A program made the position numbers and the translations under genes. DNA of 64,000 bases, from positions 160,001 through 224,000 of the IMG/VR virus record IMGVR_UViG_3300031420_000003. The stretch is one strand, 5' to 3'. This DNA is from a virus. Of the stretch, positions 7,400 through 64,000 are shown piece by piece (position 1 is the first letter of the stretch; each line of letters begins with the position of its first letter). The notes beneath the pieces are model-generated. The model did no database searches. It had not been told where the DNA came from and saw only the letters and a list, made by a program, of their open reading frames with translations.

Positions 7400-9019
7400 T
7401 TAGTAACGGATTGCCGCACCCACACCGCCGCTGCTCAGCAGCAGGTGACGTGAGGTTGGGGTTTCCAGCACCACATTCATACCCGGCTTGTGCTTATACA
7501 ACTCTTCGTAAATCTCAGAGATTGCATCCGCCGTTGACGCCAGTGTGTGCGTACCGATGGTGTGTTCCTTTTCCACCGCGCCATACAGACCCGGGATAAC
7601 CACAGAGGCGATCGTGTGTGACAGCACCAGTACGGTACCTTCACCTTCACAACGCACAACGTGTTTACCGAGGGACAGCGCTACCATTTCCAGCAGCTCA
7701 CGGAACCAATCTTCTTCCGTGCTGGTCCCGTTATCCGCAACCGTTGATTCGTATACGTTCGTGGTGAAGTATTCGAGATCTTCTGCTTTGCGTTCCAGCG
7801 AAACGATACGTCCGTTTGGCAGTTTGGTACCACCCTGCGTCATGATAGACAGTGCGTTGTGCACATGGATGTCAATCAGGTACAGGTAGCTGTTAACAAA
7901 ACGACGCGCTTCGCCAGCCGTGGTGACGGTGGAGAATTTGCCTTCGTTGATTTTCTGATGCAGCCCGATAACGTTCTTACGCAGGTTCTGAATCACACCC
8001 TGCACAAGATCAATCAGCTTATCGATATCGTCCGTGGTCTGTGCTTTGGCCAGACGTGACATCTCATTACGGTGAGTTTCGAAGAAGCTGCGAATCATAT
8101 CGCGATCGCTTTCTTCATGGCCCACGTAGTAAGTCCGCACATCTTCATCCAGACGCACCAGAATATCCGCATCTTGGAAATACACAGCGCCTGCATCATT
8201 CTGTGTGATCTCAGCAAGTTCTTTGCTCCAGCTACCACCGTCGGTGAAGACCTTCACATCCGCATTGGCCTGCTTAGCGGGTTTCGATACTTGCTCAACC
8301 TTCACTTCTAATTCATGCGCTGCGTAGTTTTCCATGTTTTCATCCATCACGTTGAAGACGCTGTCGTTTAACTCACGGTTATCAGATTGTCCGGTCAGGA
8401 CGGCTAACTGTGCACCGTTCTGAGGAGAAGGGGCGGTTTGTGCTGTTGCCAGCAGTTCATGCCCAGACGGTTGTGGTGCAGCAGCTTGTGCCGGAGCCGG
8501 TACTGCGCCCGTGGTCAGTACAGACAGGCCTGCATCCGCGTTGGTGTTCGGTGCCGCAGACGGGGTAACCGTTAATGGGATTCCACCGCCGCCACCGCCC
8601 AGTGCCAGACTCACACCGCCGCCACTACCACCCGGGGCGCTCAGTAAGCTGGTTCCGGTATTACCACCGCCCAACAGGCCACCGTTGTTTGCAGCCTGAG
8701 ATTGCTTGATCAACGCGATCGCGTTATTAAACGTCGTGGTCAAGCTGTTGTGCAGATTCGCATCCGGGAAACGTTCGTTACGTTGAACCAGACCCTGATA
8801 CACCGCCGACTTAAACGCATCAACCAACGAGTTGATTGTGGTCGCTTCATCCACACCTTTACCCAGCGCGATAGAGGCGATTGCTTGTGCAATACGCGCA
8901 GCATCATTGAGCTGTAAACCTTTGGCCTCGGCTGCGCCCAAAAGTTTCGCCAGGACTGCATCCTTTGATTTTGCATCACGCAGGACGGCCTGAATTCTAT
9001 CCATTGGTACGTTCGACAT
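7400..9019 (-). CDS. Hypothetical protein with Gly/Ala/Pro-rich low-complexity linker, 539 aa
   Basis: Long ORF with AAGGAGTAA RBS, directly downstream of nvRNAP beta-N. Confidence 0.8.
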   Translation of the reverse strand: MSNVPMDRIQAVLRDAKSKDAVLAKLLGAAEAKGLQLNDAARIAQAIASIALGKGVDEATTINSLVDAFKSAVYQGLVQRNERFPDANLHNSLTTTFNNAIALIKQSQAANNGGLLGGGNTGTSLLSAPGGSGGGVSLALGGGGGGIPLTVTPSAAPNTNADAGLSVLTTGAVPAPAQAAAPQPSGHELLATAQTAPSPQNGAQLAVLTGQSDNRELNDSVFNVMDENMENYAAHELEVKVEQVSKPAKQANADVKVFTDGGSWSKELAEITQNDAGAVYFQDADILVRLDEDVRTYYVGHEESDRDMIRSFFETHRNEMSRLAKAQTTDDIDKLIDLVQGVIQNLRKNVIGLHQKINEGKFSTVTTAGEARRFVNSYLYLIDIHVHNALSIMTQGGTKLPNGRIVSLERKAEDLEYFTTNVYESTVADNGTSTEEDWFRELLEMVALSLGKHVVRCEGEGTVLVLSHTIASVVIPGLYGAVEKEHTIGTHTLASTADAISEIYEELYKHKPGMNVVLETPTSRHLLLSSGGVGAAIRY

Positions 9020-9051: not shown

Positions 9052-10821
9052 TTAGCGACCGATCTTCGAGATATCATCCTGCGTCTCACGAACGACAGGC
9101 TCAAGTTTCGGATTGTAGCCCATCACGAGATTACGTGAGGTCTGCATGTACTGGTTAAGGATACCGTACTTGTACGGGCTTGACTTCGGAATGTAGTAAA
9201 TGTTGCCACACACCGCATGAGAAGCACTCGCATGTTTGGTACGGTCATTAAGGTTAACTGTCTTACCACCTTTCTTCTTCTTGTTGTCCGTCTCTGTTTG
9301 GCTGATGGCGTGTGTGGACACGGCCAGTACCATGGATTCGGTTGACGCGTTGAAGAAACTGATGGCTCCGTTACTGGTGATACTGCGCGTAACGAGATTG
9401 TGGTTGATATCTTTGTTCAGGTGTCCTTTCACCGTGGTGCCGCAACTCTCAGATGACTTATCATCCAATCCTTCCAGCTTCCAACGGATACGGGATACCG
9501 TACTGGTAAAGCCCTGCGTGCCAAGCAACAGATAATCCACAACGGTCAGACGTTTGCCAAACATCGATGGGATGTCATCTTGGCGCGTCAGACGCGTACG
9601 AATCATGAGCTTGGTGGCGTACATCAAGAAGTCGAAGGTATCCATATCCGGATCGATGTCCGGGTCTGACACCATCAACTCACCACGGAACGTGTCGCTT
9701 AAGTAACGCGGACACTCGCCGAAGTGTGTCGCCATGCTGCGATGCAATTCCACATCGGATGTTTTGGTTCCCATGATACTGCGCCCCAGCACTTCTTTCC
9801 ACACACCGGGTGAGTTCAAGTTCGCCAGATCCTCTTCCTGCGAGAATTCATCGAGCTTTGTGAACAACGGCGTCAGTTGGCTTAAGCCACTGCGGCTGTT
9901 CTGTTTACTGGCGTAATAATGCGCGGCTTTAAAGAACGCCCCACACATCACCAGCAACGTGTGTTCATCCTGCTCCCAACGTGGCTTATCCATGTTCGGG
10001 AAAGCAGACACCGGCACTTGCAGCGCGTATTGAATCGTACGAGACACACGCGGGTCAGCACCCGAAGAGATAATGACGTTCTCTTCTAAGTCCACTTCCG
10101 GCACTTTATAAGCTGGGATGATTTTCACATCCACGCCGGTATAACGTTTGATGGCTTCAGTGAAACCGTACTTACCGAACAGCCAGTACACCAGCGGTTT
10201 TTCATCCGCATCGTGACCGGTAGGATTCTTCGGTGTATACAGGTTCGATGTGCCCGGAATGTACAACTCTTCCTTGCGACCATTCACCAGTATCTTCACA
10301 GGGTGCTTGCCGAACTTCAGAGACACCTTGCGGGTGAAGTCGAAGTTTACAAACAGACCGTTATGCTCTTGGCAGATCCCGGGTTGGTGGATAACCGGTG
10401 CAACATGGTAGCTTGTGCCCCAGTAATTCATCAACCCACCGCGACGGATAAACGGCAGATACATCGGACGAGTCAAGACTTTGCTCTCTCCCGGAATACG
10501 GAAGCGTGCGCCAATCATGTACGTATCGGTTTCAGCAATCGGAATCGGTGCTTTACCACGGCCACTACGGCTGTCTTGTCGACTGATTTTAAAGATGAAT
10601 GATTCAAAAGGCGACATAAAGCGATAGCCAACATAACCTAACCCTTCTGGCAGACGCGGGTTGTTATCCCGGTCGTAGGTTAGTTCCCGTCGAAGAATAG
10701 TGTTCACACGCTCGTGTATCCCGTCCTTTGCTTGGGTGTAACCTACACCTTCTGCAACAGCACGGTTAAACGTCGCTATGCGCTTATCCTCCTGAAGTCG
10801 TCGTATGGCATCTTTAAACAC
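9052..10821 (-). CDS. Non-virion RNA polymerase beta subunit, N-terminal part (phiKZ gp123-like)
   Basis: rpoB-like segments (MYLPFIRRGG; PSMFGKRLTVVDYLL; HASASHAVCG...PKSSP...G); position near the capsid gene. Confidence 0.8.
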   Translation of the reverse strand: MFKDAIRRLQEDKRIATFNRAVAEGVGYTQAKDGIHERVNTILRRELTYDRDNNPRLPEGLGYVGYRFMSPFESFIFKISRQDSRSGRGKAPIPIAETDTYMIGARFRIPGESKVLTRPMYLPFIRRGGLMNYWGTSYHVAPVIHQPGICQEHNGLFVNFDFTRKVSLKFGKHPVKILVNGRKEELYIPGTSNLYTPKNPTGHDADEKPLVYWLFGKYGFTEAIKRYTGVDVKIIPAYKVPEVDLEENVIISSGADPRVSRTIQYALQVPVSAFPNMDKPRWEQDEHTLLVMCGAFFKAAHYYASKQNSRSGLSQLTPLFTKLDEFSQEEDLANLNSPGVWKEVLGRSIMGTKTSDVELHRSMATHFGECPRYLSDTFRGELMVSDPDIDPDMDTFDFLMYATKLMIRTRLTRQDDIPSMFGKRLTVVDYLLLGTQGFTSTVSRIRWKLEGLDDKSSESCGTTVKGHLNKDINHNLVTRSITSNGAISFFNASTESMVLAVSTHAISQTETDNKKKKGGKTVNLNDRTKHASASHAVCGNIYYIPKSSPYKYGILNQYMQTSRNLVMGYNPKLEPVVRETQDDISKIGR

Positions 10822-54832: not shown

Positions 54833-56932
54833 TTACTTCGGTAGCGTAGGAAACGCCCCATCATAAAGACTGGCAGGACGCTTCTCATTGACCCAGAAGC
54901 CTACGTTGTTGAGATAGTCTTGCTGACCTTGGAACAGCAACATCGGTGCACCACTACGAATCCCAATCAGGGTGTTGTGATCCACGAAACGTTTGCCGCT
55001 CACCTCGTTAGCTTCTTCACGGTCAAAGCCCACCGCCGGGAATGAATCGGTTGGGGATTCAACACGTGACACCGCTAACATGATACCCACGTGACACATC
55101 GGTACGCCGTTAAGCTTACGCCCAATGTAACGGAAGGTATCAAACAACGCATACGTACACTGCCGCTCAGTAGCGCCACCCATCTCAACCAGCGTTAAGG
55201 TTTTCACCTTGCCTTTCTTGTTCATCTTCACTGAGTTGTCGACGCTGATAACGTCATCCGCCTCATCGTTCTTATCCGCCGCAACAGAACGCAGCTTGGT
55301 CTCAAGACCCGCAACGAACTCTGCCATGGATTCAGAACGGTTGGTGTAGATAAGCAAGGGTTGTGCGGTGTGCCACTCTTTCAGTGGAATGTGCACGAGC
55401 TTCTTCACGAAGCGCAGCTTGTCACGGTGCTTCAGGAAGTAACGTAAGAACGCCTTCGAGAAGTTACCGCAAACACCCATACGGGCATCGACTGATTCTT
55501 CAAACTGCAACTCACCTTCTTTGTCATAGCGCTGGAACGTGAGGTCGTTGATCTCCGGCAGTGCCGTCTCATCAACATCATCCATGTTCTCATGATACGC
55601 AATCTGGCTCAGCTCAGAATACAGCTTGTCGGAGATAACCAGTTCGTACTCATTCCATGCGCCTGTCAGCGGTTTACCTTTGAGCTTCAGGCCCTTCTGG
55701 GAATCCTTCTCGAACTTGTCCAGATACTGCTGCATAGGTGGCGTCAGAATTAACTTCAGCAACGCACGCAGGAAGTCTAAGTGCTTGGTCGAGAGAATAC
55801 CCTGAGAACCCTTCTCAGAGATAGAGGTAGACGCCAAGTGACCCGGCGAGGTATCTTCGGATAGGTTGAAGATAAGATCGCCCATACAGCCCGCACACAA
55901 GCCCTGCTTGGCTAAGTGGCGACAAGTCATGGCACTGCGGAACAACAGCGGGCGGTCTTTCACCTTTTCAAAGTCTTCAGGTTCAAACCGACGCCAAGGT
56001 CCGCCCTCATTCTCAAAGCGATAGCGCATGCCTTTCATGGCTTTGAACGCTTGCTTGTGATGCTCAAGTTCCGTAAAGGTAAACTCGTGCGCCTCTGTGG
56101 TGCCACAGTCGTCGTAGCTGAAGTTCATGAGCACGTTCGCTACCAACTGCAGCTTACGTGAACCGTACTCGGCTTCGGCGATGTTATCCGTGTTATACAG
56201 ATGCGACCGCGAGGTGGCTCCCGCTTCCTTAAGACGGGAAGCGAGTTTGTGCAGACCGTTGAAGAAACCTTCCCAGACCTGATTGGTGTACACACGTGAG
56301 TCAATCTCTGACGTTTTACCACGCACATACGCTTGCAGTATCTGGTTCATCTTCATAGTACCGTCTTTCACCGACATCGCCAACGGGTTCATGGCAAGGT
56401 TCGGATCGCGAAGCAGTATCCCTTCGATGATTTGATAGGCGTCTTCAACTTTGTCGTTGCCTTCCGAGTCGTAACCCGTCGGGTGCTCGACAGCCCAGCG
56501 CAGGATTATCTGGAAGTCCGGGTGGTCGTAGATATCCCGCATGGTGTCGATGTCAATCGTGGTGCAATACGGCAGCAGATGCTTAACGGTTAAGTTAAAG
56601 GCATCGGCATACACATGTTGCGACAGGATGTACCGCGTATCCCCCAAATCCACACCGGCCTCACGCGCCAATACCGCTGCAATCGACATGAAGTCAATGT
56701 GGCGGTCATCGGTAGACACATCCCCCGGCTTAAAGCACAGAGACGAGGGTGTCGAGACCTGCGGATAGTAGCGCGACAATGCCCAGTACGGCCAACTCAA
56801 CTTTACGTGTCGAGAGGAGACCGGCAACGTCACACCGTCATCGAATGTCACGTCGTAACGACCGCGCATCTTCCAGACTTTCTCCGCAGGTAACATCCTT
56901 AAATCACGAATGTGTACAGGACACCCATTCAT
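54833..56932 (-). CDS. Non-virion RNA polymerase beta' C-terminal subunit (phiKZ gp74-like)
   Basis: YGSRKLQ...DDCGT; RSAMTC...LCAGCMG; GHLASTSISEKGSQGILSTKH (rpoC QSIGEPGTQLTMRTFH equivalent). Confidence 0.9.
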   Translation of the reverse strand: MNGCPVHIRDLRMLPAEKVWKMRGRYDVTFDDGVTLPVSSRHVKLSWPYWALSRYYPQVSTPSSLCFKPGDVSTDDRHIDFMSIAAVLAREAGVDLGDTRYILSQHVYADAFNLTVKHLLPYCTTIDIDTMRDIYDHPDFQIILRWAVEHPTGYDSEGNDKVEDAYQIIEGILLRDPNLAMNPLAMSVKDGTMKMNQILQAYVRGKTSEIDSRVYTNQVWEGFFNGLHKLASRLKEAGATSRSHLYNTDNIAEAEYGSRKLQLVANVLMNFSYDDCGTTEAHEFTFTELEHHKQAFKAMKGMRYRFENEGGPWRRFEPEDFEKVKDRPLLFRSAMTCRHLAKQGLCAGCMGDLIFNLSEDTSPGHLASTSISEKGSQGILSTKHLDFLRALLKLILTPPMQQYLDKFEKDSQKGLKLKGKPLTGAWNEYELVISDKLYSELSQIAYHENMDDVDETALPEINDLTFQRYDKEGELQFEESVDARMGVCGNFSKAFLRYFLKHRDKLRFVKKLVHIPLKEWHTAQPLLIYTNRSESMAEFVAGLETKLRSVAADKNDEADDVISVDNSVKMNKKGKVKTLTLVEMGGATERQCTYALFDTFRYIGRKLNGVPMCHVGIMLAVSRVESPTDSFPAVGFDREEANEVSGKRFVDHNTLIGIRSGAPMLLFQGQQDYLNNVGFWVNEKRPASLYDGAFPTLPK

Positions 56933-59148
56933 TCTGCATCCTCCCGGACTGGTCTAATCAATTCAAAACCTTCGCAACGGTGAATGTTACGAATCATCTT
57001 GTCAACCTGAGACTCACCGAGTGGGAATTTCTTCCTGTCGATGATGTACCCCGGATTGGTCGGCGTATCAGATTCGTACATCGCCTCCACTACCGTACGG
57101 TGTACCACGTTTGAGTTTGCACGGTTGTGCACCTCATCCGCCAGATTACCGTAACCGGATAACAGTCGACGTTCGGACTCACCCATCCACTTCTTCGCAG
57201 AGAAGTTAATCGGATAGCCACCCCGTCCTGCATGAGACGCATCGATAGTCCCGAGGTAGTTCAAGTGCATCGAGGAGATACACGAGAACTCACGACCGGT
57301 CTTATCCAGACGAAGGGTTTCCACGTGACCCACGTAGAACTTGTTCTTCGTCCACTCCTGCACACCGTCGTAATTGGTGATAAGCAGCTCAGATTTCTCT
57401 GGTGCAAACTCACCGAGATTATGCACGATGTCCATGGGTGTGGTGTCGAGTTCGTGCGGAAGCCAGATACGGATAGTAAAGTCGAAGATCTCTTTGAAGA
57501 GTTCCACGCGCTTCACTTCTGTGTCATGCTCTTCCAGCATGTAGTTCGCCCAATCGATGTTGTAACGCGAGAGATAGTCGATGAGAATATCAAACGCTTC
57601 ATTCACCTGATCCTTTTCCAGCATCGGCTTGATACGCAGTTTCAGTTGTTCACTGGCTGCAGACCAATAGATGTGGAACAGGCCTGAATAGGTCGAGCGA
57701 CGTACCACGGCGTTCTGAGAACGAATGACGTGCACACGCTGACCGAGTTTGTTAATCGGCATCTGCTCATCAGGTAATACCCGACCCACGATACCTTTGG
57801 TGCCAGAACGGTCAGTGATTTTCGAGGAGACCGTCACCGGAATCGGATAGCGTACCACAATCTTCACGGTGTACGTGTTGATAGGGTCTTTCAGTGAACG
57901 CTGAACCGGCTCCTTTAAACGCTGCAGAATACGCGTGTCCGCTTGGTCACGTTTGTACTCGCCACGTTTAACGGCTTCATCAATCTCACGACGCATCTCA
58001 CGTTGGAACTCCGAATAGACTTCGTAGGTTTCCGAGGCGAATGCTTTATCCAGAAGCTCGGCTGCTTTAGGCGACCAGACGATGTTGTCGTCTTTGCTCA
58101 TGGTAAAGTAGAACCGCACCAGTTCCCGATAGAAGTCTTTCAGTGCACCGGCGTAGAGATCCAGTACGTTTTTGTTTTCCGTGGTACAACGGATATTGTT
58201 CTGTCCGTTGTTAATCGATGACTCGTCACGCCAGACCTGAATGTCAATCACGCGACTGCCATTGAATTCGGATGGACGCATGAAATGCTCCGGGTCCGCA
58301 TCCACGTACTCACAATGGTCAAAGAACGGACTGGCATGCATCGTCTCACCCAAGTGAGAATCAATCGCCGCGTACAGCGGGTCATGACGTCGCGCTGCAA
58401 TCACCAAACCATCGTCACGAATCGCCTGTCCGTATTCCGGGAAATACTGCGGACGACGCACACCGTTGACAAAGCTGCCATACGTGTCGAGCAGGTACTC
58501 GTCTTCACGCAGTGATAACATTATCTCACGATAACCCCAACCGTGCATCAGATGTGCCGCAGTCTGCGATATCGTGTACGAATCCTCGATAATGTCCGGG
58601 TGCGACATCGCAACCGTTGGCAGGGCCACACCATCGACCAGCTCACCGTCCTGTACTGCATTGAAATCGGTCAGGATGTCATCGCGTTGCAGGTCATTGA
58701 TTTCACCGCGTGCAATACCACGCAGTTTATCAGTGGGGCGCAGCTCTGAGGTGAAGATATGATCGTGGTGCGTGTAGTTACTGGTCATCGCCAAATCAAT
58801 CATCGTTTTGTGCTGCGTACTCGCATCACGTTGTTTACGACGAAAGAAGATGGCGTACTGCAAGACATTCGGATCGCCACGTTTTGCATGCCGTGCAAAC
58901 ACCGCACGACGTTGACGACCTTTATCGTTGAACGAGGCCACTTCGCCATCGTCTTCGATGATGTCATTGAACATGTACTTCGCGTACTCGGAGTCGGCTC
59001 CGGTGAAATGTGGGGAGGGGGTTGGATGGTCAATCGGTACGGCCGATTTCATATGACCACCGACCATTGCTGCGCGAGAACCAGAAACGTGATCGATTAA
59101 CGGTTCACGGTCTGCGGATACGCCCTTGTATTCGACATTCGACTGCAT
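56929..59148 (-). CDS. Non-virion RNA polymerase beta C-terminal subunit (phiKZ gp71-73-like), uninterrupted
   Basis: SRAAMVGGHMKSAVP, IEDS, SKITDRSGTKGIV, DEQMP, RLDKT, WMGESE motifs of the rpoB C-half. Confidence 0.9.
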   Translation of the reverse strand: MQSNVEYKGVSADREPLIDHVSGSRAAMVGGHMKSAVPIDHPTPSPHFTGADSEYAKYMFNDIIEDDGEVASFNDKGRQRRAVFARHAKRGDPNVLQYAIFFRRKQRDASTQHKTMIDLAMTSNYTHHDHIFTSELRPTDKLRGIARGEINDLQRDDILTDFNAVQDGELVDGVALPTVAMSHPDIIEDSYTISQTAAHLMHGWGYREIMLSLREDEYLLDTYGSFVNGVRRPQYFPEYGQAIRDDGLVIAARRHDPLYAAIDSHLGETMHASPFFDHCEYVDADPEHFMRPSEFNGSRVIDIQVWRDESSINNGQNNIRCTTENKNVLDLYAGALKDFYRELVRFYFTMSKDDNIVWSPKAAELLDKAFASETYEVYSEFQREMRREIDEAVKRGEYKRDQADTRILQRLKEPVQRSLKDPINTYTVKIVVRYPIPVTVSSKITDRSGTKGIVGRVLPDEQMPINKLGQRVHVIRSQNAVVRRSTYSGLFHIYWSAASEQLKLRIKPMLEKDQVNEAFDILIDYLSRYNIDWANYMLEEHDTEVKRVELFKEIFDFTIRIWLPHELDTTPMDIVHNLGEFAPEKSELLITNYDGVQEWTKNKFYVGHVETLRLDKTGREFSCISSMHLNYLGTIDASHAGRGGYPINFSAKKWMGESERRLLSGYGNLADEVHNRANSNVVHRTVVEAMYESDTPTNPGYIIDRKKFPLGESQVDKMIRNIHRCEGFELIRPVREDAE

Positions 59149-59219: not shown

Positions 59220-59540
59220 GTGTTAGAATCGTTTATCACCCTTGGAAATATTATCCCGCCACCGGAGACAGATAGGAACCGTGTGTTGCGCGACCACGTC
59301 ACGTTTATGCGCAACCATGCGGAAACCACGGATATGCTGGTTGACCCTGCTCACAGCTACCCAGAGGTTCATTCCTTCTACACCTTCTGCAAAGCAGTTG
59401 GCTTAGAGGACATTCAAATCTATCCCACAATGTTATTGAACGGTATCACTAACCCGCTTGCTTTCACGCCTGAAAAGTACACGATGCTGAAAGTCCCCAG
59501 TGCACCACTGGTGAACTCCATTATCTCCACCATTCAATAA
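59220..59540 (+). CDS. Small protein with LysM/tail-X-like C-terminal pattern, 106 aa
   Basis: GTG with TAAGGAG RBS; TMLLNGITNPLAF...LKVP. Confidence 0.65.
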   Translation: MLESFITLGNIIPPPETDRNRVLRDHVTFMRNHAETTDMLVDPAHSYPEVHSFYTFCKAVGLEDIQIYPTMLLNGITNPLAFTPEKYTMLKVPSAPLVNSIISTIQ

Positions 59541-59546
59541 AAAAAG

Positions 59547-59567
59547 AAGGGGCCACTGCGACCCCTT
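59547..59567. terminator. Bidirectional terminator
   Basis: AAGGGG...CCCCTT stem flanked by an A-tract and a T-tract between convergent genes. Confidence 0.75.
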
Positions 59568-59580
59568 TATTTTTTTTTGC

Positions 59581-60915
59581 TTAGATGCCTAAGCCCCACA
59601 CGCCACCGTTGTTACCGCTCAGTAACGATCCACCGCTGTCACCGCCTAACAGTGAACCACTACCGCCACCCAGCAGAGAACCCCCGCCCAGCAAGCTGCC
59701 GGTGTTGGAGTTACCGCTCAATAAGCTGTTATTGTTACTGATGGTGGTATTGTTACCCACCGCCTGTGCCAACGACATGCCGCTGATGGTTTCGTTCTGT
59801 GCGTTCACACGACCGGTACGCTCGTACTCTGCCAACTGAACCGGCGTCATACGCGCTGGGTCCGGTGCGGCCAAGATAGAGTTGTTACCACGACGTGAGA
59901 CACCGTGACGGGAGAAGAATGCCATCGGGTCATCTTTGGCTGGCTCTTCTGCACTACTGGCAGTGGGCGCAGCTTTCTCGATGTGGCCATGAGACGGCTT
60001 CAGACGATATTCACGGGCAGAGGTATCCTGCTCGTTCTCCCCACGCGGGCCGACATTATACGGCAGCGTTTGGATTTTATCGTTATACTTCTCCAGCGAG
60101 TCCAGCTCTGAGATCCACGCATCGTCCAGCGGACGCAGCGGTGTGTGATCCTTTAAGCCACGCACAATCTGGTTGTAGTTGATGACATAGTTCGCCCAAC
60201 CACGTGACAGACAGCCGAAGTACGGACGGTCATCATTGGAACCCGTAACCGGTGGATACCAGCCAAAGATTGCCATCAGCAGGCGATGGATAATCACCTT
60301 ATCCTGCTTACGACGCAGGGTTGCACCAAAGTACGTTGCAGTTCCGTCTTCGCCTTCTTCTTCAAAGCAGTGACGGAAGTTTGCCGCACGCACGTACTTC
60401 ACGCCATCGATAACCAGATCCGTTGCAATGAACAACTGCAGACGTTTCTTTTCTTCGATGTTCTCACGCACGTAGTTCATGAGCGTCGTGAAGCTTTGCT
60501 GGAGCACCTTATCAAGCTTCGGGTCTTTAATCCCTTCGCAGATGCTGGCCAGCCAGTTGGTGTAACCGGCCAGACGAACCTTCTTACCTTCGGCAGCGGT
60601 ATCGAGTACGTACTCAATCAACTCGATGGAACGCGACCACAGTTGGTTCATGATGGCTTTCTTCATGAAGCGGTTGGTGCCTGACTCGCCGTACATTACA
60701 GATTCGCACAGCGGGTGATAGGCATGACACTCGGTGCCATCGTCATCTTCCATGCCCGCTTTGAGCATGGCCGTGGTTGGCAGCACCAGACGACGACGTA
60801 CTTTGTTGTACGTGAAATACGCCGGGGTCTTATCATCGCGGTAGACGAACTTGTCGCCATCGCGGTCAAAGCCCCACGATCCCATTTGACTGGTGTAGCA
60901 GTCTAAAATATTCAT
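59581..60915 (-). CDS. Conserved core protein (phiKZ gp70-like position) with C-terminal SLL(G/S)G repeats
   Basis: 444 aa; AAGGA RBS; synteny. Confidence 0.75.
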   Translation of the reverse strand: MNILDCYTSQMGSWGFDRDGDKFVYRDDKTPAYFTYNKVRRRLVLPTTAMLKAGMEDDDGTECHAYHPLCESVMYGESGTNRFMKKAIMNQLWSRSIELIEYVLDTAAEGKKVRLAGYTNWLASICEGIKDPKLDKVLQQSFTTLMNYVRENIEEKKRLQLFIATDLVIDGVKYVRAANFRHCFEEEGEDGTATYFGATLRRKQDKVIIHRLLMAIFGWYPPVTGSNDDRPYFGCLSRGWANYVINYNQIVRGLKDHTPLRPLDDAWISELDSLEKYNDKIQTLPYNVGPRGENEQDTSAREYRLKPSHGHIEKAAPTASSAEEPAKDDPMAFFSRHGVSRRGNNSILAAPDPARMTPVQLAEYERTGRVNAQNETISGMSLAQAVGNNTTISNNNSLLSGNSNTGSLLGGGSLLGGGSGSLLGGDSGGSLLSGNNGGVWGLGI

Positions 60916-60933
60916 CGGTTAATTGATCCTTGC

Positions 60934-62607
60934 TCAGAGTGTGAAGTTATCGTTATCGGAAGATAACCCCAAACCACCCAGTCCCAGACTGCCCGAACTT
61001 GGCGCATCAGGAATGTTGAATTGGAGATTGCTCTTACCTACCTTGCGCTCGTTATCGACGTATGCTTCGTCGATGCTTGAGAACAGGCGTTCGGTGTCTT
61101 TAGCCAATTGGCCGACGTATTTCAGGTCAGTGGTGTTACCCATGTGCAGACGGTTTGACATGAAGGAGGCGAAGGTGAAGAACTCTTTAACCAAGTCCCC
61201 ATCCATTCTGATCTCAACACGGTTGACCGTACCCAGACGTGCGATGATGAACACCTCAAAGCGAAGGCTGTTGTGCTTGCTCACGGTAATGAACAAACGC
61301 TTCAGATCCTGCATCAGCTGGTTGGCCAGTGCACCGGACAACTGCGTCTTCAGAAGACCTTCGACAGAATTCGGGTTGACCATCAGAGTCGGTTCGGTCA
61401 CGAAGTCTGTATTCAAGTTATCAAACGTGATAGCACACGCGCCCACTTTACTGCGGGCCATGACCTGTGACAGCTGCATTGCGATATCAAACGCAACCAG
61501 TGAAGCCGGCGTTGAATAGTCATTCATGGACAACCAGTCATCGGTCTTCTCGATGATACCGGTACGGTTCATGAACGCATCATGCAGTGACGTGATGATG
61601 TCCGTGTTCAGCTTCTCAGGGTTTGAGATTGCCGCACGGATATCCATCAGGCGGAAGTTCGCCTTCTGGGCATTACGCCACGCATCACTGCCTAGGCCGG
61701 TATTACGTTGCAGGGATTCACGCAGAGAACGGATGAACGGGAACGATGCAAAGCTGCGCATCACACCCATGCCATTCAGTTCACGCTGCACGCCGTTTGC
61801 GCCATCAGAGTCAAAGAACGAATCGACGGCCGTCAGCGTGTCGTCCTGACCACGAGACTTCAGGTAACTCGTTGACATCGCATTGACAAACTCACCCGGA
61901 CTGGTCAGACGCGAGGACATTAACTGCGCCTGCGTTGAAGCCACTGGTGAGAAGATGGTGGTGGAATCCGGCACGAATGCTTCGTTGGCACCCAGCTCAA
62001 TCTTGCGAACCATGTCCGCTGACTTCGCAATGGAAATCAGGTCGATGGTCGATTCTTGATAGGAGTCCACACTCAGTGCCTGAGACAACACGTAGTTGTC
62101 CACCATGCGCTCACTGCCCGGGATAACGTGACGCTGACCGAACAGATCCGGTGCACCGTACGTCTGCTGCATGCCGTATACGTCGTTGATATAAAGCACC
62201 ATGTCATCTGGCAGTAAGCCCGACAACGATTGCTCTCCACGACTGGTATAACCGGTGATGATAAATTGTGTTTCTTGGCTGCGTGTGTCATTGACAGGGT
62301 CAGCCACCAGAACAGCGATGAAGTTGTACACATCGGTATTGTCGCTGTTATAGTTGAAGCGGTCGACGATGTTACCTTCGCCCACGTTAACCAGTGGACG
62401 CTCAACACCGGTCGGTGTTGAGTCGAAGGAAACCACATCAGACAGCGCCTGTTGGTACAGGGGTGTTGAAGTCGCGTTACGGCCTTCACGCGACACGATC
62501 TCTTTCAGTTCATCCATCGCTGAGAGAGAAGAGCTATACGCCATACGACGACGAATCTGCTCAGGGATACCATAGACCGGGTACATCAACATGTTGACTA
62601 ATTTCAT
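60934..62607 (-). CDS. Probable phage-nucleus protein importer PicA/Imp1 (phiKZ gp69-like), 557 aa
   Basis: TAAGGAGTAAT RBS; identity inferred from size and position between the gp68- and gp70-like genes, not from a diagnostic motif. Confidence 0.6.
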   Translation of the reverse strand: MKLVNMLMYPVYGIPEQIRRRMAYSSSLSAMDELKEIVSREGRNATSTPLYQQALSDVVSFDSTPTGVERPLVNVGEGNIVDRFNYNSDNTDVYNFIAVLVADPVNDTRSQETQFIITGYTSRGEQSLSGLLPDDMVLYINDVYGMQQTYGAPDLFGQRHVIPGSERMVDNYVLSQALSVDSYQESTIDLISIAKSADMVRKIELGANEAFVPDSTTIFSPVASTQAQLMSSRLTSPGEFVNAMSTSYLKSRGQDDTLTAVDSFFDSDGANGVQRELNGMGVMRSFASFPFIRSLRESLQRNTGLGSDAWRNAQKANFRLMDIRAAISNPEKLNTDIITSLHDAFMNRTGIIEKTDDWLSMNDYSTPASLVAFDIAMQLSQVMARSKVGACAITFDNLNTDFVTEPTLMVNPNSVEGLLKTQLSGALANQLMQDLKRLFITVSKHNSLRFEVFIIARLGTVNRVEIRMDGDLVKEFFTFASFMSNRLHMGNTTDLKYVGQLAKDTERLFSSIDEAYVDNERKVGKSNLQFNIPDAPSSGSLGLGGLGLSSDNDNFTL

Positions 62608-62621
62608 TTATTAATTACTCC

Positions 62622-64000
62622 TTACGATACAAAGAAATCGACTTCATCCAGTTTTCTACGCGCTTGGATGGTCAAGAATTCGGCCAGTTGAGACTGGATG
62701 CGTCCACCCAGTTTCATGCGTTCCACCGTCGTGGAGTCGCTTTTCAACAGTACCCTGGCCTCTTCGGTACAGTTGAAGTTGAAGTAGTACGGCGCGATAT
62801 GCTGGTCTAACAACAGACGCAACGATTCACGAGCCGGACTCTCGCTGTTACCGCCACCTTTAACAGTGCGATAGTCATGAGGATAATATCTATCCATCTT
62901 AATTTTGATATCAGGTTCGATTGCATAGATGGGATGGCCCGACACATTGCCCGGCAACATCTGACAACTGAGTAACGCCGCCACTTCGTGCATGCCGTAA
63001 TGCAGATACACTGCCTGAGCAATACCCATGCCGTACTTGAATTCGACTTCGATATCTTTGTACGTTTGACGGTGTGCCTTCGAGTGCAGTGCTGCTGCCA
63101 CCAACCATTCATGCAGTTCGTAGATAGGCCCGGTGTGGTTGACCAGAATCGAATCAATCAACGTCTTCACCGTGGCCGGTGCGATGTCGATGTTCTTCAG
63201 CGTCTTGATAAACCGACGGTAATCTTTGAACGCAACCGCAGTTCGGACAAACTCCTTCACCGGTGCAGGGCTACGTGCCTGTACCAAGTCAATGGCGTTC
63301 GTCTTACCCTTCTCACCATTAAATACCGTGTTGCTCGGATGCTGCTTTAAGATAACCGATTGACCGGAAATCTTTGAAGCAAAGCCACCGTCCACTTCAC
63401 CACGAATCGCATAGAAGATTTGCGAGATGGTGTTGTTGTCGTTGAGATCCGCTGTCGCAAAGTCCGCACCCACCGGATGCAGGCCCAGTACGTAGACCAC
63501 GGTGTACGCCAGAAGATACTCTTCCAACATATCCGACCCATAGCCCCGAACCGATGCCAACACAGACAGGCTTGTGCCGCCCATGCCTTTGTTCGACTCA
63601 CGCTGGAACTTCTCAACCAGACAGTTCAGGAACACCCGCAGCTTATCAATGGCTGGCGAACGGGCTACTGCGGTATCCGAGATAACACTGAAGCAACGCA
63701 CCATGCTCAGCACCACTTTACGCTTGGTGTCTTGCGACAGACCTTTACCACCGATATACGCACCCAGCAGGTTAAACACCGGCAGGAACGGTTTGATGGC
63801 CAAGGTTTCAATCAACAGCTCGTAATACTCCGGGCGGATATAGGTCATCGCCTCAGGGTAGTTTGGCGGAAGTCCGTCAAAGTTCTCTTGGAGCTTCTCA
63901 GGAATCCACACCTTGTTCATGGGATACAACTGCTTGAACACCTCAGGTGGGTGTAAGCGGTCGATAACACGAATGACTTTTGGCAGATGCTCTTCTAATA
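62622..64000 (-). CDS. Probable nvRNAP fifth (promoter-specificity) subunit (phiKZ gp68-like), 5'-truncated
   Basis: Frame stays open from 63941 to the window end (LEEHLPKVIRVIDRLHPPEV); synteny. Confidence 0.6.
   Translation of the reverse strand, partial: LEEHLPKVIRVIDRLHPPEVFKQLYPMNKVWIPEKLQENFDGLPPNYPEAMTYIRPEYYELLIETLAIKPFLPVFNLLGAYIGGKGLSQDTKRKVVLSMVRCFSVISDTAVARSPAIDKLRVFLNCLVEKFQRESNKGMGGTSLSVLASVRGYGSDMLEEYLLAYTVVYVLGLHPVGADFATADLNDNNTISQIFYAIRGEVDGGFASKISGQSVILKQHPSNTVFNGEKGKTNAIDLVQARSPAPVKEFVRTAVAFKDYRRFIKTLKNIDIAPATVKTLIDSILVNHTGPIYELHEWLVAAALHSKAHRQTYKDIEVEFKYGMGIAQAVYLHYGMHEVAALLSCQMLPGNVSGHPIYAIEPDIKIKMDRYYPHDYRTVKGGGNSESPARESLRLLLDQHIAPYYFNFNCTEEARVLLKSDSTTVERMKLGGRIQSQLAEFLTIQARRKLDEVDFFVS
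62876..62895 (-). promoter_or_regulatory. Intragenic copy of the early-promoter motif
   Basis: 19-nt exact match (CATGAGGATAATATCTATC) to the 59176 promoter. Confidence 0.6.

Follow-up and report, generated by a model that had tools for sequence, protein, structure and literature searches.

A Leu-Leu repeat tail on the gp70-family protein of a chimallivirus genome and the same sticker motif in the tail of the neighbouring PicA-family protein

The stretch of DNA analysed here, referred to as the window, comprises 64,000 nucleotides (nt; positions 160,001 to 224,000 of virus record IMGVR_UViG_3300031420_000003) of a phage genome of 248,416 base pairs that, judged by its closest sequence relatives, is a Wellington-like Erwinia chimallivirus. 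Close to the end of the window lies the gene for a protein of 444 amino acids (aa), which we identify from profile matches and gene order as the orthologue of phiKZ gp70 and PhiPA3 gp64, and which ends in an uncharged tail with five Leu-Leu stickers. The adjoining upstream gene encodes what is, by the same kind of evidence, the PicA/Imp1 (phiKZ gp69) orthologue, and we found that the C-terminal tail of this protein carries the sticker motif of the gp70 tail from the same genome. We propose, with a probability of roughly 0.45, that the gp70 tail is a multivalent cohesive or docking module, its motif common to the PicA tail and to a third protein, and that these proteins co-assemble at the shell of the phage nucleus. 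The relevant features of the two genes are:

59581 to 60915, minus strand: gene of the 444-aa gp70 orthologue, an open reading frame (ORF) matching phrog_3520 (orthologue of phiKZ gp70, PhiPA3 gp64, 201phi2-1 gp126 and Goslar gp173)
60031 to 60915, minus strand: globular N-terminal domain, residues 1-295, from alignments, with the family hallmark F/Y-H-P-x-x-E at residues 66-71
59776 to 60030, minus strand: variable, partly charged linker, residues 296-380, from the alignment and charge profile, with the short conserved motifs DPxxFF and, terminally, ...ISxMSLAQAVG
59584 to 59775, minus strand: uncharged G/S/N tail, residues 381-444, with five SLL(S/G)G stickers and the tip VWGLGI, from sequence and shuffles
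60934 to 62607, minus strand: gene of the PicA/Imp1 orthologue, 557 aa, phrog_3141, 18 nt upstream of the gp70 orthologue
60937 to 61011, minus strand: C-terminal tail of the PicA orthologue, last 25 residues ...PDAPSSGSLGLGGLGLSSDNDNFTL, of G/S/L type like the gp70 tail, from sequence

The 444-aa protein ends in ...NNNSLLSGNSNTGSLLGGGSLLGGGSGSLLGGDSGGSLLSGNNGGVWGLGI, with SLL starting at residues 397, 407, 413, 421 and 430 (window positions 59719-59727, 59689-59697, 59671-59679, 59647-59655 and 59620-59628). A sequence-only reading of this DNA had described five SLL(S/G)G units in almost charge-free spacers, and both points were confirmed: the sequence is as given there, and the 57 residues that follow SLAQAVG (G18 S11 L11 N9 T3 I2 D1 V1 W1) include a single charged residue. 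G, S, N and T account for 41 of the 57 and form charge-depleted polar spacers between the stickers, as in Phe-Gly (FG) nucleoporins. When these 57 residues were shuffled 200,000 times, neither five SLL nor five SLL[GS]G ever occurred, and five LL were seen 121 times. The same reading had held that the repeat is kept at the protein level and is not recent slippage of the DNA. Indeed, the codons it listed for SLL are exact (in residue order AGC TTA TTG, AGC TTG CTG, TCT CTG CTG, TCA CTG TTA and TCG TTA CTG), and Tandem Repeats Finder, run over 59400-61000 with a minimum score of 30, detected no DNA repeat. The sole DNA repeat within the tail is a 15-nt pair of 93% identity (59611-59625 and 59710-59724) that corresponds to the first and last SLLSGN units. 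Since the codons differ for each SLL and no tandem DNA repeat is present, the repeat is maintained at the protein level. There is no phenylalanine in the window tail, and thus no GLFG, SLFG or FxFG, so that the tail is FG-like in design and not in motif. It also has no acidic tip, and an SSB-like architecture for the protein was dropped for this reason. Nor is the protein of the ChmC type, since phiKZ gp67 belongs to a different PHROG (phrog_3284) and the acidic tip is again missing. Throughout, we call tails disordered on the basis of their composition.

The 444-aa protein matched phrog_3520 with an expectation value (E) of 4.2e-125 over residues 1-428, and the same family was matched by phiKZ gp70 (4.1e-122), 201phi2-1 gp126 (3.8e-125) and Goslar gp173 (1.5e-63). 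Compared directly by BLASTP, the window protein and phiKZ gp70 gave E 2e-7, with 23% identity within the domain. Its nearest relatives, in Erwinia phages Wellington and Kwan, are about 95% identical over residues 1-386 by BLAST; the alignment stops at the tail because of the low-complexity filter. The homologues of PhiPA3 gp64 listed by Enustun et al. 2023 (PMC10643120), namely phiKZ NP_803636, 201phi2-1 YP_001956850, Goslar YP_009820858 and PA1C QBX32218, are the same genes as those matched here. Gene order agrees with orthology: around gp70 the order SbcD, gp66, gp67 (ChmC/Imp6), gp68 (nvRNAP sigma-like subunit), gp69 (PicA), gp70, nvRNAP beta, beta', helicase is identical in all 22 annotated phage records compared, and in the window, as in these 22, the gp70 orthologue lies between PicA/gp69, immediately upstream of it, and nvRNAP beta, downstream. 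The sequence-only reading had regarded the neighbour as a probable nuclear importer, to be verified by profile search, and such a search bears it out: the window protein and phiKZ gp69 both match phrog_3141 (E 8.5e-129 and 2.7e-179, respectively) and both are 557 aa long. Pairwise BLASTP between the two was not significant (E 2.1), yet they are collinear over 495 aa. Goslar PicA is gp174 (preprint 10.64898/2026.10.01.755736), which adjoins gp173, the gp70 orthologue, in the annotated record.

Over 146 aligned family members, P68 and E71 of the N-terminal domain are invariant, and Y7, P46, F66, H67, S78, R176, P231, N248, N287 and G289 are at least 90% conserved. No Pfam or NCBIfam family matched at E up to 1, neither a family for the domain itself nor a nucleic-acid-binding or nucleoporin family. 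A PDB sequence profile search with the gp70 orthologue likewise returned nothing relevant, nucleoporins included (one chance match at E = 1), and the ESM Atlas gave no usable match.

The tail is a constant feature of the family. When 1.84 billion representative proteins were searched with a profile, 943 relatives had an E of 0.001 or less, 325 of them an E of 1e-10 or less, and the matches covered the N-terminal domain. The family set was drawn from the 150 best of the 943, leaving out P0054, P0059, P0120 and P0146 (<375 aa) and the scrambled-looking P0034, and was aligned in 146 rows. Whether orthologues share the tail had been named as a check on the sequence-only reading, and they do: a G/S/N-rich tail bearing L or F stickers is present in each of the 32 close homologues, and a segment of 73-287 aa (median 154.5) follows the domain in 146/146 representatives. 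We classified the last 60 residues as uncharged (at most 12% D/E/K/R) or Arg/Asp-rich (at least 35%), which gave 100 uncharged, 32 Arg/Asp-rich and 14 intermediate tails. In the uncharged tails, the commonest sticker was Y in 39, M in 36, F in 10, L in 9 and W in 6; the phiKZ gp70 tail, for example, is of Q/N/P/G type with Met-Met, as against G/S/N with Leu-Leu in the window. A few relatives have literally nucleoporin-like repeats, with SLFG/GLFG in P0043 (...NNSLFGTSNNGGLFGSSGGGGSLFGN...), SMFG in P0045, and NPFG or NPFA in P0048 and P0049; among the 146, at least four FG were found in 8 and at least two [GS]LFG in 2. On the N-domain tree, the Arg/Asp class requires at least 7 changes on well-supported branches, and the window clade (11 rows, support 99) comprises 10 uncharged tails and 1 intermediate one. 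Given that every representative has the extension and that the class has switched, a disordered tail is always retained while its chemistry is repeatedly replaced. The best explanation of the tail is as a multivalent module that is retained but evolves fast.

The Arg/Asp tails are dipeptide-rich and 50-77% charged (for example P0050, P0052, P0053, P0055, P0063 and P0067, and those of loci L028, L029, L031, L053, L058 and L062), and often end in S-[IL]-x-D-[LIM]-x-x-RR. A similar motif, S-[IL]-x-[DQ]-[ALF]-[LV], is found directly before the uncharged tail (MSLAQAVG in the window, SIQDLL in phiKZ). As a family-wide tip, S-[IL]-x-D-[LF]-L was present in no more than about 30 of 149 sequences, its place differing among them, and was set aside as minor. 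Three hypothetical proteins of Salmonella phages SPFM10, SPFM12 and SPFM14 (P0033-P0035) consist of short, reshuffled pieces of the gp70 orthologue, with 15 separate stretches of P0034 matching the family profile, and look like assembly or annotation artefacts.

The PicA tail changes together with the gp70 tail, and the link between the gp70 tail and PicA made in the sequence-only reading thereby gains support. In the window and Wellington, GLGGLGL in the PicA tail accompanies SLLGG in gp70. Both tails have SLL in L010, where PicA ends in SFNF and gp70 in GFSF, both have NSLLD or GNSIL in L011-14, and both have GGLGGG in Asesino and phiEaH2. SFGSFG in PicA is paired with SFGGGSSFGG in gp70 in L015-18, and CR5, Derbicus and Phobos are F-type in both (GF or SF in PicA, NPF in gp70). 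Both tails are Arg/Asp-rich in L028, L029, Xoo-sp14, L058 and L062. The tips correspond as well, with LGL[LV] in PicA and LGL[IV] in gp70 for 201phi2-1, Phabio and PA1C, SRRRI and GSRRI for L034, SRGF and GRGY for L038, and GFGLI and GFGNI for L033.

To quantify the pairing, we used the 64 loci in which both genes are complete, collapsed to 46 by merging identical gp70 and to 32 lineages at no more than 70% N-domain identity. Across the 32 lineages, and in permutation tests (20,000 shuffled pairings) that ignore shared descent, the centred composition cosine of PicA and gp70 tails was 0.461 against 0.001 +/- 0.071, the BLOSUM62 score of the last five residues was +2.03 against -3.96 +/- 1.05, and the number of shared 3-mers was 2.12 against 0.92 +/- 0.21; in each case 0/20,000 shuffles reached the observed value. 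The charge class of the two tails agreed in 42/46 genomes. By the same three measures, the gp67/ChmC tail of the same genomes matched neither PicA nor gp70 (composition, 13,397 and 5,843 of 20,000 shuffles), which speaks against compositional bias across the genome as a whole. That the tails are similar because gp70 and PicA are paralogues was rejected (hhalign profile probability 0.4%), and so was gene conversion as a general cause, with a DNA repeat between the tails at 1/6 loci. This sole repeat is a 23-nt stretch, 87% identical between L014:6411-6433 and L014:7722-7744, that encodes GNSIL in both tails.

A third protein carries the motif in an internal stretch. Its features, with those of the preceding gene and of the chimallin orthologue, are:

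7400 to 9019, minus strand: third protein, 539 aa, phrog_8185, encoded immediately after the nvRNAP gp123 orthologue
8375 to 8707, minus strand: internal uncharged stretch of the third protein, residues ~105-215, with GGLLGGG and TSLLS, from low-complexity and motif scans
9052 to 10821, minus strand: nvRNAP subunit gene, orthologue of phiKZ gp123 (phrog_2943; matches PHIKZ123)
230450 to 232258 of the whole genome, G000 (L082:1951-3759), minus strand, outside the window: chimallin orthologue, 602 aa, by orthology to Asesino gp39

A genome-wide scan for uncharged low-complexity stretches gave about 40 ORFs, four of them repeat-like cases by eye: gp70, the ChmC orthologue, three overlapping Cys/Ser/Gly-repeat ORFs outside the window, and the 539-aa protein. 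The pattern [GSN]LL[GS]G occurs five times in gp70, once in the 539-aa protein and in one short opposite-strand ORF inside the 539-aa gene, and nowhere else in the genome. In 10/10 genomes looked at, the internal stretch carries the local gp70 motif: SGSLLGGG twice in L010, four NNPF(L/T) each in CR5 and Phobos, GGLGG and GGLLGG in SPN3US, LGGLGG in L014, NTFGG and NFG in L015 and L016, GGGGLGGGG in Asesino, and RLGGLGG in L012. Shared 4-mers between third protein and gp70 tail numbered 4.6 against 2.53 +/- 0.58 (20/20,000 shuffles). At the DNA level, a genome-wide scan for NNPF-coding sequence gave four matches in CR5, two in the gp70 orthologue and two in the third protein, and ten in Phobos, four in each of these genes and two singletons elsewhere; the two genes lie about 46 kilobases (kb) apart in both genomes. 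The phrog_8185 protein was found only in the SPN3US-like clade, and a locus search with the 539-aa sequence alone gave Wellington only. It occupies the position of phiKZ gp124, and by this position may be its counterpart; BLASTP to phiKZ gp124 gave only E 0.51. We also noted M/Q/G/P(/Y) stretches inside phiKZ gp124 and Goslar gp038, with an apparent likeness to their own gp70 tails. The overlapping Cys/Ser/Gly-repeat ORFs (G000 103159-103985, plus strand) are 115-142 aa long and consist almost wholly of such repeats (CSGGCSGTCSG...). The possibility that the third protein is chimallin was rejected, as another gene of this genome encodes the chimallin, orthologous to Asesino gp39, which is the ChmA that was tagged in PMC11724907. 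Neither this genome nor any control genome was matched by the Pfam Phikzvirus chimallin model.

How would such tails act? The gp70 protein would present a conserved 295-aa globular domain and, at the end of a charged linker, an uncharged disordered tail with its five Leu-Leu stickers. A sticker dialect common to this tail, the PicA/Imp1 C-tail and the internal stretch of the third protein would allow weak like-with-like contacts, or binding to one common motif receptor, to hold the three proteins together, and the assembly would be placed at the chimallin shell, where PicA acts. Localisation comes from papers on the PhiPA3 orthologue: gp64, an early protein without detectable homology to known proteins, localises to the nuclear shell together with PicA, and pull-downs of ChmB contain gp63 and gp64 (PMC10643120). 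That the common motif reflects co-assembly, and that such an assembly would serve transport, we infer. Selective import by PicA/Imp1 is known for phiKZ and PhiPA3 only (10.1101/2024.03.27.586873, PMC11087766). According to the PicA paper (PMC11087766), a pore has not been observed, and the Imp1 preprint (10.1101/2024.03.27.586873) considers a pore, a flippase or an unfoldase.

Several observations weigh against co-assembly of gp70 with PicA. When expressed in E. coli, phiKZ gp70-FLAG did not co-purify with His-Imp1, and the same preprint lists phiKZ gp70 among nuclear and not shell proteins (10.1101/2024.03.27.586873); the import factors named in the text available, Imp1-Imp7, do not include gp70. 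A low-complexity PicA tail was, by eye, absent in at least 5/32 lineages (Goslar, RAY, L026, L031 and Proteus phage 10). Descent-aware support for the matching of the tails is weak. Binary independent-pairs tests had only 3-5 usable pairs and were underpowered (p 0.25 or more). In 20 sister-pair contrasts, matched tails exceeded crossed ones by 12 to 8 for composition (p 0.25) and by 9 to 7 for 3-mers (p 0.40), and the gp67 control was positive in some pairs too (11 to 8). The best of the phylogeny-aware tests was that of the tips, at 10 to 3 with 7 ties (p 0.046). With a cut chosen post hoc, after seeing the data, 8/8 sister pairs whose composition contrast exceeded 0.2 in size were positive.

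The result for the tips would also fit a somewhat unlikely alternative, in which the tail is a flexible tether whose repeated unit and extreme C-terminal tip dock into a folded receptor pocket, in chimallin, PicA or another shell protein, and the PicA and gp70 tails are alike through use of the same pocket and not through mutual sticking. The last five residues are the one feature of PicA and gp70 that passes the sister-pair test, the ends of chimallin and PicA match in the sublineage of the window (...TTNSFTL and ...DNDNFTL, the latter encoded at 60937-60960; in L010 SSFNF and DSFNF, with GGFSF in gp70), and chimallin tails mediate lattice contacts (PMC10643120, figure legend). Over 11 genomes, however, the chimallin-PicA tip match was not above shuffles (4,481/20,000) and a chimallin-gp70 match was absent (15,458/20,000); mimicry of chimallin tails is thus not supported as a general rule and is kept as a lead only. 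The window gp70 tip VWGLGI is moreover unlike its own PicA and chimallin tips, and the receptor is itself putative. We consider it quite unlikely that gp70 has a role in transcription or replication within the phage nucleus, its tail concentrating polymerase or RNA in the manner of low-complexity domains in eukaryotic transcription and RNA factors, and its link to PicA being only that of cargo to importer. Here the gene has a fitting place among nvRNAP subunit genes, as has that of the third protein after the nvRNAP gp123 orthologue. Mixed-charge Arg/Asp tails such as those of the 32 relatives, and Q/N/Y/G/P tails such as the Y-dominated ones, resemble those of eukaryotic nuclear RNA-binding proteins. 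The nuclear listing of phiKZ gp70 points the same way, but PhiPA3 gp64 was scored as shell-localised and not nucleoplasmic (PMC10643120), the five nvRNAP subunits that a preprint names (10.64898/2026.09.21.753271) do not include gp70, the Pfam and NCBIfam searches gave no nucleic-acid-binding family, and such a role leaves the motif in the tail of the importer itself unexplained.

Finally, the matching tails could be a by-product of mutational bias in a lineage or of short DNA exchange between neighbouring genes, with a motif that has no function beyond that of a spacer. The mostly non-significant phylogeny-aware tests, the positive gp67 contrasts, the repeated switching of tail class and the GNSIL-coding repeat in L014 are all compatible with this. 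We nevertheless hold it to be very unlikely: the gp67/ChmC tail of these genomes shows no such match, 5/6 loci have no DNA repeat between the tails, each SLL in the window has different codons, the tail was never lost in the 146 representatives, and motif-coding DNA is confined mainly to two distant genes (4/4 matches in CR5 and 8/10 in Phobos). A more ambitious form of the co-assembly proposal, which we regard as unlikely, is that PicA/Imp1, the gp70-family protein and the third protein create, within the chimallin shell, a small phase that is cohesive and pore-like, held together by a sticker code particular to each lineage (LL, FG, NPF, MM, Y or Arg/Asp) that co-evolves among the partners. 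Such a selective phase is speculative, and so is the role in import gating or condensate formation that the sequence-only reading had suggested for the gp70 tail.

The remaining features around the two genes are:

62622 to 63998, minus strand: orthologue of phiKZ gp68 (nvRNAP sigma-like subunit), 5' end cut by the window end, from phrog_3209 and gene order
56929 to 59148, minus strand: nvRNAP beta gene, downstream of the gp70 block
54833 to 56932, minus strand: nvRNAP beta' gene, downstream of the gp70 block, the beta/beta' pair being identified by phrog_3295/phrog_3015 matches
59220 to 59540, plus strand: small gene, 106 aa, convergent with the gp70 orthologue, an ORF with a profile match to phrog_3455
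59547 to 59567, minus strand: terminator-like hairpin of 9 pairs with a T run behind it, immediately following the gp70-orthologue stop codon, between the convergent genes

A small opposite-strand gene follows gp70 in 21/22 annotated chimallivirus records, phiKZ being the exception, and two records annotate it as a baseplate wedge protein. Several relatives (L001:5878-5903, L034, L048, L052, L053 and L064) have overlapping PicA and gp70 genes, the overlap ranging from a few nt to about 30 (26 nt in 201phi2-1), compared with the 18-nt gap in the window, and such an arrangement is compatible with coupled translation.

On the question of how folded proteins pass the chimallin shell, a sticker tail on a conserved shell protein, next to an importer with a matching tail, offers a hypothesis concrete enough for mutational tests, and the protein encoded at 7400-9019 may be an additional partner at the shell that we did not meet in the published text consulted. 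Should the proposed co-assembly prove wrong, the family would still be a natural series of tails that are retained while their chemistry shifts from uncharged to Arg/Asp and back. In the open literature, subscription papers being outside our scope, we found no published text on the gp70 tail or its PicA match. The word 'disordered' does not occur in the main text of PMC10643120 as available; nor did 'gp70', 'disordered', 'nucleoporin' or 'condensate' in the available text of a recent review, and literature joining phage nucleus and nucleoporin gave only unrelated papers in the portions available.

Among known systems, the closest are PhiPA3 gp64 and phiKZ gp70 themselves, which have in common with the window protein the phrog_3520 family and the place between PicA and nvRNAP beta, and differ in sequence, with the low domain identity to phiKZ and its Met-Met Q/N/P/G tail in place of Leu-Leu G/S/N. 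ChmC/Imp6 (phiKZ gp67, PhiPA3 gp61) is a shell protein with a Whirly fold that binds RNA, and its N/G-rich disordered C-tail is required for condensates with RNA (PMC11077065), an example of such a tail driving condensation in the phage-nucleus system. Like gp70, it is early, shell-associated and encoded in the conserved gene block, and has a disordered uncharged C-tail. It differs in family and fold and in its G/N/Q/Y tail with an acidic-aromatic tip, which does not follow the PicA/gp70 motif, and it binds Imp1 directly, which gp70 did not (10.1101/2024.03.27.586873). We observed this G/Q/N/Y-rich tail with its acidic-aromatic tip (for example ...PPDQSFDDIML) in the orthologue of Wellington (L003:1844-2548) and in that of the present genome (G000 224371-225066, just outside the window), and its form is constant across all lineages examined, unlike that of the PicA and gp70 tails. 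Outside the nucleus, the YG-rich phase of the peroxisomal importer PEX13 is a pore-like import phase whose stickers, aromatic or hydrophobic, are set in a G-rich spacer. It recalls the phage family in that Y is the commonest sticker there; PEX13 is a membrane-anchored eukaryotic protein without sequence relation, and the role of the phage tails is putative.

GLFG-type FG nucleoporins (Nup98/Nup100/Nup116) have charge-depleted N/S/G/T/Q spacers, regular hydrophobic stickers and a folded anchor domain. To our knowledge, no transport receptors are known in phages. In comparison with the FG nucleoporins (see also PMC9579204 and PMC11076500), the window protein has no Pfam homology and no Phe, its tail of 57-64 aa with five stickers stands against hundreds of residues, and 32/146 phage relatives have Arg/Asp tails. 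The analogy with the nuclear pore drawn in the sequence-only reading therefore holds in part. Its strict FG form is weakened, because Arg/Asp tails are unfit for a hydrophobic FG-type phase and because of the negative Imp1-gp70 pull-down. What stands is the design of a sticker-spacer tail on a folded domain, its place at a compartment boundary beside import machinery, and the literal SLFG/GLFG (P0043), SMFG (P0045) and NPFG (P0048) of relatives. If a pore-like phase of this kind does exist, it would be the convergent counterpart, in a bacterial virus, of the FG permeability barrier of eukaryotic nuclear pores and of the YG barrier of peroxisomes.

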